Sequence record: NC_107631.1
Length of the DNA: 50,078 nucleotides
Reading direction: 5' to 3' (one strand)
Source: a phage
Positions 1 to 50,078 of this stretch are shown here, one piece after another. The notes below the pieces were generated by a model, which saw only the letters and a program-made list of their open reading frames with translations, was not told the origin of the DNA and searched no databases. The stretch's first letter is position 1; the number at the start of each line of letters is the position of its first letter. The position numbers were made by a program, and so were the translations under genes.

Positions 1-409
1 AATCAAATTTAAATGCACTTCCGCAGAAAAAATCACAGGATTCGAAGTTAATAATCTGTACAAAGGTCGTGAGCACGACGACGGCACTCGCGAAGTAAAG
101 TTAAAATGCGGTAAGTATTTAAAACTTGAAAAGCATGATGAATTACATATTCACGGATCTGATGAAATCTTCTTCGCGAAGTTCACTGAGTTGAAAACAA
201 AGACGCTCAAGTGCACCGGACTTGACCATCGCAACCCGATGAAAAAATCATTCAAGGTTGGAAAGCGTTACCAGGTAGAAAGCGGTCGCGCTCTCGGTGC
301 TGTGGCTGGTTACATCTTTGATGAGGACGGTTGCCGCTGGACCTTATACAGATCCGATATTGGATTTGAGGTAGCTGACGGTACGAAGTTTGAAGGACTT
401 TACTCATGA
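1..409 (+). CDS. hypothetical protein, 5'-truncated at window edge
   Basis: Frame is open from position 2 to the stop at 407-409; internal repeats of K-x-K-C-T / F-E-V type; overlaps the next start (ATGA). Confidence 0.5.
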   Translation, partial: IKFKCTSAEKITGFEVNNLYKGREHDDGTREVKLKCGKYLKLEKHDELHIHGSDEIFFAKFTELKTKTLKCTGLDHRNPMKKSFKVGKRYQVESGRALGAVAGYIFDEDGCRWTLYRSDIGFEVADGTKFEGLYS

Positions 410-891
410 TAAATATAAGAGATGATTTTTTATATGTTGATGGAATTATTTATTATAAGAGTAACACTAGATTTAAAAACCTTGCTGGGAGAGAGGCTGG
501 AAAGTTAGATAGGCTGGGTTACTGTAGGTTTTATGATGGGTTTAGGATGGTTTATAGACATAGATATGTATGGACTATTTTTAACGGCCAGATACCTGAA
601 GGTATGGAAATAGACCACATAAACCATATACCAGGTGATGATAGAATTGAAAATTTAAGACTTGTAACTAGAGAAGGGAACACAACAAATAGAAGTCTAA
701 ATAAAAATAACACATCTGGCATGAATTGCATATACCCTATGAAATCAGGCTCTTACAGGGTAAGAGTTAGATTTAGGGGTAAGACTTACGGAAGGTGCGT
801 TGACACTGTTAGTGAGGCTATAGATTTAAGAGATTCAATACTCATTGATCTTGGTTTTCATGAGAATCACGGATCGAATAGCATTTTTTGA
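406..891 (+). CDS. HNH homing endonuclease (HNH plus AP2-like domain)
   Basis: IDHINHIPGDDRIENLRLVTREGN motif; tail resembles AP2 domain (YRVRVRFRGKTYGRCVDTVSEA); visibly AT-rich codon usage versus neighbours. Confidence 0.8.
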   Translation: MINIRDDFLYVDGIIYYKSNTRFKNLAGREAGKLDRLGYCRFYDGFRMVYRHRYVWTIFNGQIPEGMEIDHINHIPGDDRIENLRLVTREGNTTNRSLNKNNTSGMNCIYPMKSGSYRVRVRFRGKTYGRCVDTVSEAIDLRDSILIDLGFHENHGSNSIF

Positions 892-950: not shown

Positions 951-2519
951 ATGTTTAATATTAAGCCAAAACTGAATTACCAACAGATTATTGAGATCGC
1001 AAATAGCACTGGAGTTAATCCGGTGGCGATCGCAATTCGTGAAAACAGTTATGGGGATTCAGTTTCTTTTTGGCAAGATCCGATCGATATCAACAGCGGA
1101 AACGATAAGTTCCCTCTGATTTCGTTAGGTGGCGATAACCTGGTATTCGAATATGCAAAAGCAAAAGCTGAATCAGTCCAGTTCCCGGTTTCATCCGCGT
1201 ATGCTCATTTTATCGGTTGCATCTCAGCCGCGATGCTCGGGAAGTTTTGGGTGCAATATCATGGAGAAGAACAGCCGACAGCACTTTACATGGTAATCAG
1301 TCAGCCACCATCAACAGGTAAATCAGCGATTAACTCAGCGGCGATTACACCTATGCGTGCGGAGATTCAGCGACTGAATGAAGAGCGCAAAAAGGAACGT
1401 ATCCGTTTAACAAGTCAGCTACGTCAGGTCGAGAAGGAAATTAAAAACGATCCGAAGGGTAACACGACGGCGGCGCTGTACGAAGACAAGGAAAAACTGG
1501 AAGAAAAGATCAAGAAGATGGCTGATATTGTTTTTGCGGTATCAGATCCTACACCTGAAGGTCTTGCGAAGGTGGCGGCTGTTCAAGGTCACTTCTCCGT
1601 AATCTCTGATGAGGCAACAGCAATAAATACATTGCTGGGACTGACCTATGGCGGTTCTGATAAGAAATCAAACAGCGAGCTTATCCTTAAGGCGTGGGAT
1701 AAAAACCATATGGAGGTCGCGCGTTCAAATCAGGACAACAACTTATCTCTTTGCCCGGTCGGTTCGATCTGCGTCATTGCGCAGGATGAAACAATCAAGG
1801 GCATAATGGACGCAGGCCAGCGAGGTATCGGTGTATCTGAGCGTTTCCTATTGGTTCGCGAGGAACCGCTTTTAGGTACTCGTATTCTTTGCGATGAAAA
1901 TGGTGATGCGCTGTATAAGGAAGTCGATCGAGGGTTGGTGAGTAAATATTATCGACTCGTGCACAACATTATGAAAGAGGACAGCGTTGTTCTCTCTGTA
2001 AGCCGTAATGCTATGCGTGAATTGAACCTTGCGCGTCAGGCGATGGAGCCGGATTTCGCCGCAGGGGGTAAATACTCTCACTCAATGCTACGCGGTCATC
2101 TCGGCAAGTTCGATAAGCACGCCTTGCGTATTGCTTCAGTTCTCCACACAATCAAGAATTGGGAGGGTGAATCACCGAACCGTTCCAATCGTGAGATAGA
2201 TCTTGAAACAATGCAGGAAGCAATCATGATTTTTAATGAGCTTTCCAGAACTTATCTGTCGTCTGCCAGCGCCGCCGGGTATGCTGGTGATGAGGCTGAA
2301 TCTCGTAAGCTGATTGATGTTATCACTGAGATCGCAAAGAAGAACAAAGGTCGCGCACCTATTCATAGCATTGTTGCAAAGTGCCGTAACGTTACGCCGT
2401 TCAACGGTCAACAGAAAGTAGCTGAGCGAATCGACAGCCTGCTGATCACGCTCGAAGAGATGAACTACACTTGCCGCATTGATGATATTGTTTTCATCAA
2501 TCCTCGACTGATGGGTTAA
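951..2519 (+). CDS. putative replication-associated P-loop NTPase (DnaB-like Walker A)
   Basis: Start moved to Met22 of the track ORF, preceded by AAGGAG; ISQPPSTGKSAINSA resembles the DnaB RPSMGKTA Walker A; function is inferred only. Confidence 0.5.
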   Translation: MFNIKPKLNYQQIIEIANSTGVNPVAIAIRENSYGDSVSFWQDPIDINSGNDKFPLISLGGDNLVFEYAKAKAESVQFPVSSAYAHFIGCISAAMLGKFWVQYHGEEQPTALYMVISQPPSTGKSAINSAAITPMRAEIQRLNEERKKERIRLTSQLRQVEKEIKNDPKGNTTAALYEDKEKLEEKIKKMADIVFAVSDPTPEGLAKVAAVQGHFSVISDEATAINTLLGLTYGGSDKKSNSELILKAWDKNHMEVARSNQDNNLSLCPVGSICVIAQDETIKGIMDAGQRGIGVSERFLLVREEPLLGTRILCDENGDALYKEVDRGLVSKYYRLVHNIMKEDSVVLSVSRNAMRELNLARQAMEPDFAAGGKYSHSMLRGHLGKFDKHALRIASVLHTIKNWEGESPNRSNREIDLETMQEAIMIFNELSRTYLSSASAAGYAGDEAESRKLIDVITEIAKKNKGRAPIHSIVAKCRNVTPFNGQQKVAERIDSLLITLEEMNYTCRIDDIVFINPRLMG

Positions 2520-7536: not shown

Positions 7537-7949
7537 TTCATCATTTCGTAAATTGCGATCTTGAATTGCCCGAATCCGTATGCGACGGCAGAGAAGCCGC
7601 CACGCTCCCGGACCTTTTGGAGAAATTCCCTTTGCTTGTCGCTGACTGGTGACGCCTTTCCTTTTCCTGACTTATTAACCCGCTTAAGTTCGATTGCTGC
7701 AAACGGGTATCGTGAGTTAACACCAATCAGGATAACAAAGTCTGACACTCCTTTAAGTAATCCGGCCTGCTCATCCCTGAGCGCCGATGTGATTGTTTTT
7801 TCACCTTCATTGACAGTGTGCCAAAATAGAAGGTGCGGGAAGTTGTATTTCAGCCAGGACACGCAATCTACCTGGTGCGCGTCCTCTTTCCGTGTATCGC
7901 TGGGATCTCTCTCGTAAAATTCTAAATAATCACCTTTGTCTGTAATCAT
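7533..7949 (-). CDS. VRR-NUC domain nuclease
   Basis: PD-(D/E)XK-like core (GVSDFVIL..ELK); sits immediately downstream of the helicase, a common pairing; GGAGGA RBS. Confidence 0.65.
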   Translation of the reverse strand: MITDKGDYLEFYERDPSDTRKEDAHQVDCVSWLKYNFPHLLFWHTVNEGEKTITSALRDEQAGLLKGVSDFVILIGVNSRYPFAAIELKRVNKSGKGKASPVSDKQREFLQKVRERGGFSAVAYGFGQFKIAIYEMMK

Positions 7950-9958
7950 TCCGGGATATCCTCCATACCGAAGTCTTTACGTGAAATAATATCTTCTTTC
8001 TTCTGGTTGCGACGATGAGTTACGCGCACCGGGTGAGCAATATGATGTGAGTATTGCAAAATCTTGATGGCGTTCTTCATTCCGATAAAGTAGCGGCGCA
8101 TTTTAGGATCTGACACATGAGGTAATACACCTTTCGTTTTCCATAGCGTACCGCAAATCTTAGAGTCAGACTCGGGGAAGAATTTTTCATACGCCTTGAA
8201 CTCATCACCATCGTCGTTAATCAGAGTGTATTTGTATATTATACCTTTCTGGTTTTTGGTTAGCGTAACCTCAAAATTCTTTACTTCATACCAGTCATTC
8301 TTAGTGTACGCCTTACCGGATAACTTCAGGTTAGGATCGACAAGAGAAACATCACAACAACGACAGACTCGCGCAACAACATCATTCTCTGCACCGCATC
8401 CTTTAACAAGGATTTTCCCGGTTCGCTCGTCAACCTGGTCCTCACAAATCTGAGAAGTCCAGAAATGATCGCAACGCTCACCATCAATGACATTAACGCA
8501 TCGTCGAGCATAGAAGCTATTTACGCAACCGCATTTCGGACACGTTTTCGGGTCTTTTCCGTTTTCAAAACGCTTTTGGAATTGTGCCTGCTCAAGTATC
8601 GGATCGAAATAAAGCTGACCCAACTCATCCATCGTACCTGCGAAATCCCATACCAGATGGTCCTGCTTAACCATTCCCTCAGCAACCTGCCAAGATTTAA
8701 GCAGACGCATACCCCTACCCAAAAGTTGAATTAACAGTGTGAGCGACCCTATCTTGCGGAGTATGACACTGAAATCCCAATTTGGAACGTTAACGCCAGT
8801 AGTGAGCGCCATTACCTGAAAGGTGTATTTAATTTTTCCGGCCCTTACATCGTCAAGAATCTTCTTGCGCGCTTTGTTGTCTGTGTCGCCAGTGATGATT
8901 GCATAGGTACTTCCAGGAGGAAGTGCAGCCGCCGCCTCTTTGCAGTGACGCACCCCGGCGCATGTAATCAGTACCGCGTTACGCTCTTCAGCCTTTTTGG
9001 CAACCATTTGCATGATTCGCTGAGTAAGAGATTTATCATGAAGGATCTCATCTTCCATTGCCTTCATATCTTTCTCTGTAAAGTCCTGTACCCCATCCTC
9101 GCTTGAAGCCTTGAATTTATCAAGATCGTAGTGAACTCCGTCCGTCGAACCGAATATAGTCGGCACAACAGAACCGAACTCAATAAGATAATTTGTGTCA
9201 ATATCAGTCACGCGCTCACGCCAGAATCCAAGAGCTTTCGGATTCTCTACCAGAATAGGAACTACACCCCGAAATTCAGATCCAGTCATACCAAATATTC
9301 TGAGATCGTGACCGTGAACCTTTTTACAGCGCCGCATCATTTCCATGATTACGATCGTGTACTGACTGCGCTTAGTTCCAAGCAAAGGTTTTCCATCATT
9401 ACCAATCATGGGGATATCTCCGTCCATGATAACCTTCCCTTTCTCGCCCCTCATCTGCTCCATCGTTTCCTTGCCTTCGATGGCTTGCGCAAGGTCTTCC
9501 CAATCCACCTGGTGACATTCGTCGATCCCAATTACATGCGGTACGAAATCAGCTAACTCATTGTCGAGGCCATTTGCAACAGTACCCTCTGAGCCAACCA
9601 CGATCGGAAAGTAGCAGGACTTGATTCCAAGTGACGCTGAGAAGATGGAGTTCGTTACCCCGAAGTTGTCGATCTCTTCGCTATCCTGATCGACAATCTC
9701 ACCCTGACGAGCCAGGACAAGCATTTTTAAGCCCATTTTCTGACACTGCTTTGCCACCATAGCGAAGATGATTGTCTTACCTGCGGATACAGACGCTTTA
9801 ACGAAGAATGGATGCTCGTAATTTGATAGGCGTTTCGCGATCTCGGCATAAGCAACAACCTGGTACGGATAAGGAACAACCTCACCAACAGTAAATCGCT
9901 CCTGAGTTCTCTTTATATAGTCATCGCCAAGTAATGCAATCTGTTTTTTAATGTTCAT
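7946..9958 (-). CDS. SF2 DNA helicase (DEAH-type) with C-terminal zinc-ribbon
   Basis: Walker A-like SAGKT, motif II IGIDECHQ, C-terminal CPKCGC..C..C cluster; start moved to ATG at Met3 because track start is GTG. Confidence 0.8.
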   Translation of the reverse strand: MNIKKQIALLGDDYIKRTQERFTVGEVVPYPYQVVAYAEIAKRLSNYEHPFFVKASVSAGKTIIFAMVAKQCQKMGLKMLVLARQGEIVDQDSEEIDNFGVTNSIFSASLGIKSCYFPIVVGSEGTVANGLDNELADFVPHVIGIDECHQVDWEDLAQAIEGKETMEQMRGEKGKVIMDGDIPMIGNDGKPLLGTKRSQYTIVIMEMMRRCKKVHGHDLRIFGMTGSEFRGVVPILVENPKALGFWRERVTDIDTNYLIEFGSVVPTIFGSTDGVHYDLDKFKASSEDGVQDFTEKDMKAMEDEILHDKSLTQRIMQMVAKKAEERNAVLITCAGVRHCKEAAAALPPGSTYAIITGDTDNKARKKILDDVRAGKIKYTFQVMALTTGVNVPNWDFSVILRKIGSLTLLIQLLGRGMRLLKSWQVAEGMVKQDHLVWDFAGTMDELGQLYFDPILEQAQFQKRFENGKDPKTCPKCGCVNSFYARRCVNVIDGERCDHFWTSQICEDQVDERTGKILVKGCGAENDVVARVCRCCDVSLVDPNLKLSGKAYTKNDWYEVKNFEVTLTKNQKGIIYKYTLINDDGDEFKAYEKFFPESDSKICGTLWKTKGVLPHVSDPKMRRYFIGMKNAIKILQYSHHIAHPVRVTHRRNQKKEDIISRKDFGMEDIPE

Positions 9959-9977
9959 TGTCACGGCTATTAATCCT

Positions 9978-13475: not shown

Positions 13476-13503
13476 CAAATCCCCGCATTGCGGGGATTTT
13501 TAT
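13476..13503. terminator. bidirectional intrinsic terminator
   Basis: AATCCCCG-cattg-CGGGGATT followed by TTTT; lies between convergent genes. Confidence 0.75.
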
Positions 13504-13919
13504 TAGAACGGAATATCGTCATCAAATGTTGACTGAGGGTTAGGTTGTGGTTGTTGTTGAGTTCGCTGTTGCTGCTGAGGTGATCTCTGTTGTTGATTGC
13601 TTTGCCCTCGTTGACTGAATACCAGCTTAGGGAAATCAGCAGCCTGCAATGAATTGTAAGTAGTTCCGTTGTGCTCACGGGATGAGATCTTCAACGTTTC
13701 GCAAGATACTGAAATTACCCGACCAACCTGAAACGCTTCACGATACCAATCAGCAAGGCCAGGCTTTCCACCATCGCTAAAAAAGAATGTGTAGTTGGTG
13801 TATTCACGATCGCCATCACGAGGCTTATAGCTTTCTGCCAGTTCGATGATATAAGTATTGCCGCCGTTACGTTCAAGAATCTTAGGTTCTTTGCGGATCT
13901 CGCCAGTTATAATATGCAT
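13503..13919 (-). CDS. ssb: single-stranded DNA-binding protein
   Basis: OB-fold-like N-terminus, Gln/Pro-rich linker, canonical acidic C-terminal tail DDDIPF. Confidence 0.85.
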   Translation of the reverse strand: MHIITGEIRKEPKILERNGGNTYIIELAESYKPRDGDREYTNYTFFFSDGGKPGLADWYREAFQVGRVISVSCETLKISSREHNGTTYNSLQAADFPKLVFSQRGQSNQQQRSPQQQQRTQQQPQPNPQSTFDDDIPF

Positions 13920-13964: not shown

Positions 13965-14612
13965 TTATTCGAAGTTGGTGATTGATTGAGATTGTACAGG
14001 CTTCGCGCTAGTTGCTTCAACCTGTTTTTTCTGTTCCGGTTGCGCCGGGCGAATACCACGAGCTTTACCGATCTCAAACTTAGCCTTAAGTGCGTTGTAG
14101 TGATCCTGAATGATTGACTTGCTTGCCGTGTCCGTCTGGCGGTAAGCGTTAGCCCATACCTCTTTCAGTGATTCGATATCTTCACACGCATCAAGTTCTT
14201 TTTTCCAGTCCTTGACAGATTTCACTGCAAGCTGAGCATCGTCATCACTCTGGCTAATCCCCAGCGCTGCGGCTAATGAGTAACGTCGAGCATACGTCAT
14301 TGCGGAACCTACGCCTTGCGGATCGCGTTTTGCAATCGGCATCATCATGAAGAATTTGGCCCACTGCCCGGATTTATGAATCAACATCGTCTCAAGATGG
14401 AAGGTCGTTTCCGTGCTTGTATCAAGCATTGATTGCAAGATCATAATATCGTTGTCGGTGAGCGCCGGGCTAACGGCTGACATCATTGCATCAAGGGTTG
14501 CGTATGAATTTTTCAGGTGGTTGTTTTTTGCGTCCTTCTTTGCTTTAGCAAATTTGTTGCGAGCATTGAACAGTGCTGGAAGGATTTCGTTCGTTTCTGG
14601 TGATAATTGCAT
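13965..14612 (-). CDS. erf: ERF-family single-strand annealing recombinase
   Basis: Similar to P22 Erf: N..K.AKAKKD..NSYATLDAMMSAVSPAL and AMTYARRYSLAAALGI; start moved to Met12 with conserved ACCAATCAGGAG RBS. Confidence 0.75.
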   Translation of the reverse strand: MQLSPETNEILPALFNARNKFAKAKKDAKNNHLKNSYATLDAMMSAVSPALTDNDIMILQSMLDTSTETTFHLETMLIHKSGQWAKFFMMMPIAKRDPQGVGSAMTYARRYSLAAALGISQSDDDAQLAVKSVKDWKKELDACEDIESLKEVWANAYRQTDTASKSIIQDHYNALKAKFEIGKARGIRPAQPEQKKQVEATSAKPVQSQSITNFE

Positions 14613-14686
14613 CTTTACTTCTCCTGATTGGTGTATGAGGTGCATTATAACACCTCATTAATTATTTGTTTAGCTATTTGTGCCGT

Positions 14687-15751
14687 TTACTTATTTTGGT
14701 AACGCACCCATGATGGCGTTTCAAGTTCGATCTCGCTTGCGTCGCCAGCGTACCCAGGCCAAACATCCATTTCAGAGCAAGCCTTGTAAGTGTGGACTAC
14801 GCTAATGTACTGGTTACGACCGATCCTGATTTGCTCCATAGTCATACGGTAAGCAAGTGCGATGTAAGGCTCTTTTTTCTCCTGCGTAAGCAATCGAACT
14901 ACGATCGGGATATCTTCCGGAAAGTTTCCTTCAAAAGCGCCAGCCTGGATTGCACGTCGTAGCAGGTCATGCTGCAAGGCCATTTTTAGATAATACCCGT
15001 GATTGTATGCCAGTCTAGGGAACTCTAACGGGTTAGCGCTCATCGTGGTTTTGAAGTCAGTGATAATTAGCGCTTCAGGGAAAATAACGTCTTCAAATAC
15101 CGGATCGCCGTTCTCATCATAACCAGTCAGCACGCGGCCTGGAACATTCTCTTTGTAGTCCAGATGGTCAAGACGAACCTTAACTTTGACGCCGGATATC
15201 TCACCGAAGATTGAGATCTCACGCTGAGCCGTCTCGCTATTGATGCACGCTTCATGATCCTGATTTTGCTCAAGGATTGCCCTCATCTTCATGCAGGCGT
15301 CGTATTTGTCAGCGTCAACCAATTTCTTTCCTTCAGCGCGCGCCTCGGCCTCAGCAATTAGTTCAATCAGATATTGGACGTTAAGGTCTTCACCACAATC
15401 AACCATCATTTTGATGAGGTCCGGGTACTGCTTACCGGATGTACCTTTCAGGCCGAATGATTTTAATTTAGATGCCAGCGCCGCCTGCGAAGTAATCAGA
15501 TCCTTAAACTCTGCCGGAGCCGGGCAACGGGCATACGATGCAGTAAACAGATCTCGGCTCTCAAAGTTGGTATGCGACTGAGTGCCGAACTCCAGCGCTT
15601 TCGTTGTCTCATTCTTCTTGAATCGCCAGTTAGCCGGGCAAGTTTGATAGATTTCTGCAAGGCTCGATCCGCTCACATACTCTGCCGCCCAACCTTCGTT
15701 GCTATGATACTCGTCATTAGAAAGCTGACTTGATGTGAATACCTGGAACAT
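14687..15751 (-). CDS. PD-(D/E)XK exonuclease (recombination partner of ERF)
   Basis: IITDFKTT motif of RecB/Cas4-type nucleases; first gene of an exo-erf-ssb operon; AGGAG RBS. Confidence 0.6.
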   Translation of the reverse strand: MFQVFTSSQLSNDEYHSNEGWAAEYVSGSSLAEIYQTCPANWRFKKNETTKALEFGTQSHTNFESRDLFTASYARCPAPAEFKDLITSQAALASKLKSFGLKGTSGKQYPDLIKMMVDCGEDLNVQYLIELIAEAEARAEGKKLVDADKYDACMKMRAILEQNQDHEACINSETAQREISIFGEISGVKVKVRLDHLDYKENVPGRVLTGYDENGDPVFEDVIFPEALIITDFKTTMSANPLEFPRLAYNHGYYLKMALQHDLLRRAIQAGAFEGNFPEDIPIVVRLLTQEKKEPYIALAYRMTMEQIRIGRNQYISVVHTYKACSEMDVWPGYAGDASEIELETPSWVRYQNK

Positions 15752-40453: not shown

Positions 40454-40497
40454 ACTATATCAAATCACCCCATCGACGTTTTAGCAATTCGTGCTAT
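40454..40497 (-). promoter_or_regulatory. dyad-motif middle promoter
   Basis: ATAGCAC-GAA-TTGCTAA; TGaTATAGT extended -10 28 nt downstream inside inverted repeat GTCGATG..CATCGAC. Confidence 0.55.
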
Positions 40498-41748: not shown

Positions 41749-41792
41749 ATTCTAACAAATACCCTTGAGCAAGTTTTAGCAATTCGTGCTAT
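41749..41792 (-). promoter_or_regulatory. dyad-motif middle promoter
   Basis: ATAGCAC-GAA-TTGCTAA then TGtTAGAAT 28 nt downstream inside inverted repeat AAGGG..CCCTT. Confidence 0.55.
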
Positions 41793-47911: not shown

Positions 47912-47928
47912 ATAGCACTTTTTGCTAA
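47912..47928 (+). promoter_or_regulatory. dyad element without an obvious -10 partner
   Basis: ATAGCAC-TTT-TTGCTAA; no -10-like hexamer at +28 on either strand. Confidence 0.4.
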
Positions 47929-49331: not shown

Positions 49332-49471
49332 TTTATGTTCACACCTTTTATACAGGAAAGTTTAACAGCGTAAAAAATGTTCGCGTTTACGATAGTCACC
49401 AAAAAGCAATGATGCAGAGAGTAGTGCTAGGAGGAACAATCAAAGAGTGCAAAGTAATCTCTGAGTACTGA
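49328..49471 (+). CDS. hypothetical very small protein, not in ORF track
   Basis: ATG overlapping the previous stop (ATGA); coordinates approximate. Confidence 0.25.
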   Translation: MIYVHTFYTGKFNSVKNVRVYDSHQKAMMQRVVLGGTIKECKVISEY

Positions 49472-49515
49472 TAGCACAAATTGCTAAAGACACACACCGG
49501 GGAGTGAGTTATATT
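49471..49515 (+). promoter_or_regulatory. dyad-motif promoter
   Basis: ATAGCAC-AAA-TTGCTAA then TTATAT(T) 28-29 nt downstream inside inverted repeat GGGAGT..ACTCCC. Confidence 0.5.
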
Positions 49516-49548: not shown

Positions 49549-49773
49549 ATGAGCATTAAAGTTGAGAATATCATCAAGCACTTGAACGCAAAAGGTCGTG
49601 TAGTTATCAAAATGGATAAGTCTTCCGGTTTTATTTCAATGACGGTAACTAAGACCCGTAACGGTAATAACGTTATTGGCAGCACGCCAGGCTCGCACTT
49701 AGTAAATGCAACAGATGCGGATGTGCGCGCTACGCTTGAGGCTAACTCAATTTACATTAATTCATGGAGTTAA
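49549..49773 (+). CDS. hypothetical early protein
   Basis: Start moved to Met16 with AAAGGA RBS; 74 aa. Confidence 0.5.
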   Translation: MSIKVENIIKHLNAKGRVVIKMDKSSGFISMTVTKTRNGNNVIGSTPGSHLVNATDADVRATLEANSIYINSWS

Positions 49774-49777
49774 TTTA

Positions 49778-49990
49778 ATGGAACGGGATAATTTCTGGAC
49801 TCGTTATTTTGGCGCTCTTGATGCTGGTCTTAGTGCTGAATGGTGTATCAAGGTAGCGTATAAAGAAATAACGCTTGAAGAGGCTTTGGGTGATATGAAT
49901 ATGGACGAAGAAAGTGAGTTTGATCCTGATTTTGAATTACCAGAAGAACCAAAAAACGAAGATTTAGACGACGATTATATCCCGTGGTAA
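49778..49990 (+). CDS. small acidic protein with SSB-tail-like C-terminus
   Basis: Start moved to Met25 with GGAG RBS; C-terminal DEESEFDPDFELPEEPKNEDLDDDYIPW. Confidence 0.5.
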   Translation: MERDNFWTRYFGALDAGLSAEWCIKVAYKEITLEEALGDMNMDEESEFDPDFELPEEPKNEDLDDDYIPW

Positions 49991-50034
49991 ATAGCACGAT
50001 TTGTTAATATTGCCGTAAGGTCATTTGATAAAGT
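49991..50034 (+). promoter_or_regulatory. dyad-motif promoter (cassette family B)
   Basis: ATAGCAC-GAT-TTGTTAA then TGaTAAAGT 28 nt downstream inside inverted repeat; the whole cassette is near-identical to the one at 43803..43886. Confidence 0.55.
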
Positions 50035-50070
50035 GGCCTTATTCAAGATAACCAATCAGGAGTTAACACC

Positions 50071-50078
50071 ATGAAAAA
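50071..50078 (+). CDS. start of a gene truncated by the window end
   Basis: ATG AAA AA following the conserved AACCAATCAGGAG cassette. Confidence 0.4.

Follow-up and report, generated by a model that had tools for sequence, protein, structure and literature searches.

SSB-tail interactions are essential in bacteria, where they organise replication, restart, recombination and repair, and they are pursued as antibiotic targets. The site that receives the C-terminal tip of SSB (SSB-Ct) has three defining features: the last Phe enters a hydrophobic pocket, its carboxylate meets a basic lip and the Asp residues contact a basic ridge. An SSB without the last Phe loses all of its interactions, which is lethal (PMC10164576). 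In crystal structures of the ExoI and RecO complexes only the last 3–4 residues, (D)IPF, are ordered; a bulkier aromatic last residue and an Ile-to-Leu change at position -2 give higher affinity for ExoI or RecO (PMC10143822). Small molecules that block the interactions of SSB-Ct have been reported as antibacterial targets (PMC3594151).

Acidic docking tails with an aromatic end are familiar from SSBs and from the T7 helicase-primase gp4, but not as the property of a stand-alone family of small proteins. The tail of the T7 SSB, gp2.5, ends in DGDF. In PDB 6P7E the T7 polymerase, gp5, carries the peptide DTDF as a stand-in for the gp4 tail, and the gp2.5 C-terminus has been positioned by aligning it to that peptide; gp4 offers the precedent of a non-SSB replication protein with an SSB-like, aromatic-ended acidic tail that uses the docking site of the SSB tail (PMC12339929).

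The window analysed here (the whole stretch of 50,078 nucleotides in record NC_107631.1) is ~90–93% identical to T1-like phages (Tunavirus, Drexlerviridae), e.g., vB_EcoS_ULIM2 and LeonhardEuler/Bas13. The reading frame of the gene that starts at 50071 carries on from base 1, and its two parts together give a product matching the LeonhardEuler 138-aa gene located 3′ of the gene under study; since this gene spans the window junction, the window is a complete, circularly permuted T1-like genome. Read across the junction, the plus-strand cluster comprises small unknown genes, the target gene, the 138-aa gene, an inserted HNH endonuclease gene that is missing from the corresponding position in LeonhardEuler, the helicase gene (PHROG 2373) and a 135-aa gene. 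Outside this cluster there are genes for SSB, for an Erf-like annealase at 13965..14645, for an ExoVIII-like exonuclease at 14687..15751, for one more exonuclease and, at 7946..9964, for another helicase. According to PMC11447400, neither T1 nor TLS has a DNA polymerase gene, and both depend on host enzymes.

The target gene (49778..49990, plus strand) codes for a 70-aa protein, MERDNFWTRYFGALDAGLSAEWCIKVAYKEITLEEALGDMNMDEESEFDPDFELPEEPKNEDLDDDYIPW (ATG at 49778, TAA at 49988-49990), exactly the ~70-aa reading frame with the C-terminus DLDDDYIPW for which the original prediction had proposed a likeness to the SSB tail. As the stop codon of the upstream 74-aa gene, at 49773, lies only 4 nt ahead of the target ATG, the two genes are probably co-translated. 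The label "early" given to the gene derives solely from its place among small same-strand genes upstream of the helicase gene. The protein matches the PHROG 9085 profile over its full length (E 3.6e-40, residues 1-70 vs profile positions 1-69 of 69), and its N-terminal domain (N-domain) also matches PHROG 9323 and PHROG 4823; these are all families without an assigned function. The net charge of the protein is -17, of which -14 falls in residues 39-70. As modelled, it is a two-part protein, with an N-terminal three-helix domain followed by an acidic arm predicted to be disordered (Table 1).

Table 1. Features of the target gene and of the loci discussed with it, in window coordinates
Feature	Coordinates	Strand	Remarks
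Target gene	49778..49990	+	PHROG 9085 member; orthologue of T1 MK213796 47187..47327 region and LeonhardEuler bas13_0048
Ribosome-binding site GGAG	49766..49769	+	8 nt 5′ of ATG; from the sequence
N-terminal domain, residues 1-38	49778..49891	+	Helices 6-15, 20-27, 33-38; conserved module of the family
ALGDMNMDEES, residues 36-46	49883..49915	+	Most conserved stretch of the whole family; consensus ALGDMDMDxES
Acidic arm, residues 39-66	49892..49975	+	Predicted coil, block-mean pLDDT 60-70
C-terminal tip Tyr-Ile-Pro-Trp, residues 67-70	49976..49987	+	TAA 49988-49990 directly after
74-aa gene (PHROG 4344)	49549..49773	+	Upstream of target, same two-gene unit
Intergenic repeat ATAGCACnnnTTGnTAA, copy	49471..49487	+	Upstream bound of two-gene unit
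Intergenic repeat ATAGCACnnnTTGnTAA, copy	49991..50007	+	Starts one base past target stop codon
138-aa gene (PHROG 2684)	50071-50078 joined to 1-405	+	Crosses window junction
HNH homing endonuclease gene	406-891	+	Between 138-aa gene and helicase gene
Helicase gene (PHROG 2373)	951..2519	+	3′ of target; same strand cluster, continuing across window junction
Phage SSB, 138 aa	13503..13919	-	Ends STFDDDIPF; tail codons 13506..13526

The tip of the target protein is placed like SSB-Ct, at the extreme C-terminus after a flexible segment, and like it combines Ile-Pro-aromatic and a free carboxylate with a run of Asp residues. Pro at -1 and Ile at -2 follow the SSB-Ct pattern, Trp70 is the last residue with a free alpha-carboxylate both here and in all Tunavirus homologues, and the predicted-disordered segment before the tip (residues 39-70, coil) corresponds to the SSB-Ct linker. 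Unlike in SSB-Ct, the last residue is Trp and not Phe (Phe being last in most other subfamilies), and position -3 is occupied by Tyr and not Asp, with Asp-Asp-Asp at -4 to -6 in the target and D-D at -4 and -5 in T1. Set against the E. coli SSB-Ct, DFDDDIPF, the window's DLDDDYIPW has one extra Tyr, whereas the DVDDYIPW of the T1 homologue aligns without gaps, with five identities and two conservative changes. The carrier protein further differs from SSB in having no OB fold. The resemblance put forward in the original prediction is thus real, backed by this T1/E. coli alignment and by family-wide conservation of the tip (see below), and its statement that the phage's own SSB at 13503..13919 carries a DDDIPF tail also agrees with the translation, which ends in STFDDDIPF; the small protein and the phage SSB may use the same pockets. 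To judge from the substituted Phe residues on ExoI and RecO, the pocket can accept a larger ring, and because larger aromatics at the last position raise affinity for these two enzymes, the Trp tip is plausible as a ligand of the SSB-Ct pocket and, by the same analogy, possibly a tighter one. No covariation of the tip with the SSB tail was found in the Webervirus KpV522, in which the SSB ends in MDFDDDIPF and the small protein in IPFW.

Chance and selection were assessed at the level of the window, the genus and the wider family. Ends of the form [ILVMF]-P-[FW] occur in just two of 574 six-frame segments (stop-to-stop, >=40 aa, all six frames of the window), namely the target and the phage SSB, with 0.47 expected. 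DNA comparison of the window gene with 15 homologues found Tyr-Ile-Pro-Trp to be identical in 16/16 Tunavirus genes: the Tyr, Ile and Pro codons of the tip vary only synonymously (TAT/TAC; ATC/ATT; CCG/CCC/CCT), whereas the four codons preceding the Tyr codon do show replacements. A word-indexed homology search returned 62 clusters, all from T1-like contigs of ~50 kb and every one either without a name or labelled "hypothetical"; when these are aligned, the first 38 residues hardly vary, the acidic stretch before the tip is variable and YIPW is present in every complete sequence. These sequence comparisons indicate that the tip is under purifying selection and that it is probably a C-terminal docking motif of the SSB-Ct type on a non-SSB protein.

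More distant relatives were collected with a profile search of 1.84 billion representative proteins, which yielded 32, and a second indexed search with a diverse alignment, which yielded 203. They share an N-terminal module, roughly F..R...A.DAGLN.EW..KVA....TL.EALGDMDMD.ES, past which the 25-40 residues preceding the tip are not alignable between subfamilies. An x-Pro-[Phe/Trp] end is found in 153/168 collected family proteins (IPW 66, FPF 61, IPF 19, LPF 3, and VPF, MPF, TPF and EPF one each); four others have Pro-Phe plus one residue (IPFW, VPFL), one ends in ISF, and the last ten comprise fragments, proteins of the long form and a spurious repeat protein. The Pro of the tip is conserved in >90% of the aligned family. 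In the acidic arm, residues 46-52 form a semi-conserved SE[FY]DP[ND]F, and the remainder differs in both sequence and length among relatives. Because the terminal tripeptide is the sole conserved feature of the C-terminal half, it has the hallmarks of a linear docking motif, short and dependent on a free C-terminus, a form shared by the SSB tip with its Ile/Leu-Pro-Phe-COOH.

A tblastn search with the N-domain matched 461 phage records, essentially all of them ~50-kb T1-like genomes in which the gene is annotated as hypothetical, from hosts including Escherichia, Klebsiella, Shigella, Salmonella, Citrobacter and Enterobacter. Twenty records labelled "Campylobacter phage" (e.g., MG065643, ~50 kb) carry the target gene at 61-65% identity, and the host assignment of these T1-like genomes looks doubtful. 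In one genome, that of Shigella phage vB_SsoS_008 (L019, P0062), the annotation joins the upstream 74-aa gene and the N-domain of the target into a single gene whose frame ends after MDMD, with loss of the acidic arm and tip; the truncation may be natural or may reflect a sequencing error. Webervirus members (about 109 records; e.g., KpV522 gp70, L026 47985-48224, minus strand) end in CRECIPFW or CSECVPFL, one residue past Pro-Phe. Most non-Tunavirus members (P0066, P0072-P0075, P0094-P0168; e.g., Escherichia phage tonnikala gp19) have an invariant CxC(5-6)CxxC directly before the terminal Ile/Phe-Pro-Phe, a cluster which by its sequence looks like a small zinc knuckle. An intermediate is seen in P0105, which combines an acidic run and a Cys at -3 with an IPW end.

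The N-domain is also found in longer proteins. In Ackermannviridae it lies within proteins of 160-175 aa (259 matching records, 240 of them covering >=80% of the query), e.g., gp193 of Salmonella phage SKML-39 (L025 5001-5528), which has the ALGDMD motif and is coded ~1 kb from the DNA polymerase gene; these ViI-like relatives, probably equivalent to PHROG 4823, are all annotated as hypothetical and none has a Pro-Phe end. Two further proteins (L005 8001-8654 and L002 879-1808) combine the N-domain in one chain with a coiled-coil and with a zinc ribbon like that of Mu gp6 (PF26833); the gene in L005 directly follows a lysozyme gene, and its contig, of 54 kb, codes for a PolA-type polymerase. 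Since the long forms keep the N-domain and its ALGDMD motif without the Pro-Phe tip, the N-domain is, by this comparison, a module in its own right, and the tip belongs to the T1-like lineage, which has no polymerase, a correlation over three lineages only.

Modelling with AlphaFold from the family alignment gave three short helices (block-mean pLDDT 78-90), coil for residues 39-70 (60-70) and no strands, and a Cys-cluster relative gave the same three helices with a low-confidence C-terminal half (block-mean pLDDT 51-61). These models bear first on the option, raised in the original prediction, that the protein is a DNA mimic. As with Ocr, ArdA, Arn or T7 gp5.9, the acidic half would then stand in for the phosphate backbone and block a DNA-binding enzyme. 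Like these proteins the target is small, very acidic and coded among small genes of unknown function; a net charge of -17 in only 70 residues would suit such a role, as would the acidity of the C-terminal half, whose mean charge is -6 to -13 across all subfamilies. However, a DNA mimic has a fold on which the charges are arranged as in DNA, whereas the acidic region here is predicted to be coil in two subfamilies (block-mean pLDDT 51-70), with no rigid scaffold. Moreover, its sequence and length are poorly conserved while the terminal tripeptide is conserved, and a mimic would not need an unchanging Tyr-Ile-Pro-Trp end. The option is therefore poorly supported, and we consider it very improbable.

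The models also bear on whether the tip has an intermolecular role at all, the alternative being that it packs on the N-domain or the Cys cluster, or affects stability or turnover. Terminal aromatics are often buried in small proteins, and the adjoining Cys cluster of most subfamilies could form a metal-bound knuckle that includes the tip. Yet neither the model of the Tunavirus protein nor that of the Cys-cluster relative supports packing of the tip onto the N-domain, the C-terminal half being of low confidence and without confident packing in both (pLDDT 60-70 and 51-61, respectively); the Tunavirus proteins have no Cys cluster and their tip is unchanged all the same; and the long relatives retain the N-domain with no tip. 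A purely structural tip thus appears improbable.

Searches of Pfam, NCBIfam and PDB sequence profiles found no family for the target protein or its relatives, two weak PDB matches (a designed repeat protein and CHMP1a) being chance matches to the LxEALGDxDM stretch. Membership of the SSB family was rejected, there being no match in Pfam or NCBIfam and a model of three short helices with no strands. A Foldseek comparison of the AlphaFold model with the PDB gave nothing with E <6, and against BFVD it recovered only uncharacterised phage proteins with the same N-domain. A likeness of the N-domain to the three-helix proteins Pol III theta and P1 Hot was dismissed at a profile-comparison probability of 0.3%. 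The label "Phage_Mu_gp6" seems to fit the C-terminal zinc ribbon of the long relatives and not the shared N-domain; the only relatives with a PF26833 record are the long P0086 and P0091, and the likeness of their zinc ribbon to Mu gp6 was judged by eye.

We favour the explanation that the hydrophobic-Pro-aromatic tip docks into pockets that recognise the C-terminal tip of SSB. The pocket would take the last aromatic, the basic lip the alpha-carboxylate and the basic ridge the acidic residues, with the N-domain providing a second contact and the source of target specificity. Going by sequence, we give docking in SSB-Ct-type pockets, whether to block them or to use them as a tether, about an even chance. 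As a competitive blocker, the protein would occupy the SSB-tail pocket on one or a few DNA-metabolism enzymes of host or phage (candidate host targets are ExoI, RecQ, RecJ, RecO, PriA, RecG, primase and the chi subunit) and would thereby uncouple them from SSB-coated DNA during infection. A possible gain is that the single-stranded intermediates of the phage's Erf/ExoVIII recombination-dependent replication would be protected, and the Trp tip and Phe-Pro-Phe variants would represent an Ile-Pro-Phe tuned in affinity or selectivity. We put the blocker forward tentatively, well short of even chances, and give it that much weight because small acidic phage proteins of this kind are mostly inhibitors and because the departures from IPF look like such tuning. 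Peptidomimetics and small-molecule blockers of SSB-Ct, as described in PMC10143822 and PMC3594151, likewise act by competition for SSB-Ct pockets, but are man-made.

In favour of a blocker are the conservation of the tip, its SSB-Ct likeness, the arm predicted to be coil and the restriction of such ends in the window to the SSB and the target, together with a genome that has SSB, an Erf-like annealase, exonucleases and two helicases in a lineage whose members T1 and TLS have no polymerase gene (PMC11447400). Against it stand the Trp at the last position and the Tyr at -3, as well as the diversity of the tips elsewhere in the family. The seven residues before the tip have a mean charge of -4.2 in the IPW subgroup vs ~0 in the largest other subfamily (FPF), where they comprise the Cys cluster, often with Lys/Arg, and are neutral or basic; this would be a poor fit to the basic ridge. 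The IPFW and VPFL ends shift the carboxylate one residue past Pro-Phe. The phage SSB tail is canonical both here and in KpV522, and a non-selective decoy would also disturb the phage's own replication. Finally, the strong conservation of the N-domain suggests that the tail is not the whole story.

Several of the same observations fit a docking site unrelated to SSB-tail pockets, on a phage partner, the beta sliding clamp or another host hub, with the DDDIPF likeness of the Tunavirus tip being partly coincidental. The element conserved across the family is just hydrophobic-Pro-aromatic; the acidic run is confined to the IPW subgroup; ends such as IPFW and VPFL show that the position of the carboxylate is not fixed; and in many members a CxC..CxxC cluster directly precedes the tip. 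The subfamilies with this cluster in place of an acidic run, and Webervirus with its one residue beyond Pro-Phe, are indeed unlike SSB-Ct. However, the exact SSB tip, Ile-Pro-Phe-COOH, occurs in 19 family clusters and Leu-Pro-Phe in others, and no alternative receptor for x-Pro-Phe-COOH was identified. The beta-clamp motif is QL[SD]LF or QLxLxL, with hexapeptides that end in Leu-x-Leu, e.g., QLSLPL and QLVLGL. Measured against this consensus, a beta-clamp-binding motif was rejected, the ends DDDYIPW, CKRCFPF and CRECIPF having no Gln-Leu. A different receptor for x-Pro-aromatic-COOH is a possible reading, to which we give roughly the same chance as to the blocker.

Docking of the tip in an SSB-tail pocket could alternatively serve to recruit rather than to inhibit. 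In this case the N-domain would bind a phage replication protein, e.g., the downstream helicase, and the tip a host client of the SSB tail such as chi or the DnaG primase, so that the host polymerase, absent from the phage, is coupled to the phage helicase, with T7 gp4/gp2.5 as the analogue. The target lies in the same-strand cluster as the helicase gene in both Tunavirus and Webervirus, although gene order kept within one virus family is a weak sign of functional linkage. The T1-type phages are without a polymerase gene (PMC11447400), whereas both N-domain lineages that lack the Pro-Phe tip (the Ackermannviridae and the PolA-type contig) code for their own, subject to the small number of lineages noted above. 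If the N-domain is an anchor, its higher conservation relative to the arm would be expected. The DTDF peptide of the gp4 tail on gp5 in PDB 6P7E (PMC12339929) provides a precedent; yet in T7 the tail is part of the helicase-primase and docks on a phage polymerase, whereas the target is a separate 70-aa protein of a phage without one, and the motif chemistry differs (D-x-D-F in T7 vs I-P-W). In addition, the binding of the N-domain to the helicase is an assumption, and a canonical tail for the recruitment of host factors is already present on the phage SSB. We regard the tether as unlikely.

In the open-access papers and preprints searched, no non-SSB phage protein with an SSB-Ct-like tip is described, nor did they yield a natural protein inhibitor that competes for SSB-Ct pockets; the literature on T1 early functions and the genome-wide phage gene-fitness screens covering T1-like phages, within the same open-access and preprint scope, have nothing on the target gene. 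That T1-like phages code for a natural, affinity-tuned ligand of host SSB-tail pockets, in effect an "SSB tail without an SSB", is still a doubtful proposition. If true, such a ligand would be used to switch off or hijack part of the host SSB interactome, and the SSB-Ct hub would have its first inhibitor or adaptor among natural proteins, with the IPW, FPF and IPFW variants forming evolution's structure-activity series for a validated antibacterial target. A separate small protein with the tip of the SSB tail would show how a polymerase-less phage manipulates the SSB hub, would name the host enzyme or enzymes that T1-like phages must silence or recruit and would supply natural high-affinity ligand variants. 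It would also give a first functional handle on a domain that is "hypothetical" in hundreds of Drexlerviridae and Ackermannviridae genomes.

As for the surroundings of the gene, a scan for promoters and terminators around the target gave no excess over shuffled controls. Two copies of the repeat ATAGCACnnnTTGnTAA flank the two-gene unit that contains the target. The window holds 17 such sites against an expectation of 0.05, and most share the strand of the genes next to them; further examples lie at 47912-47928 (plus strand), 40481-40497 and 41776-41792 (both minus strand). The repeat is the 21-nt direct repeat described in phage TLS, for which roles as a promoter, UP-element or enhancer have been proposed (PMC11447400). 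A 7-bp hairpin at 50017..50040 (AAGGTCA / TGGCCTT, with one G-T pair) lies 3′ of the repeat copy downstream of the target; it was rejected as a classical terminator, having no T-run. The LeonhardEuler version of this hairpin has a perfect stem (TGACCTT).
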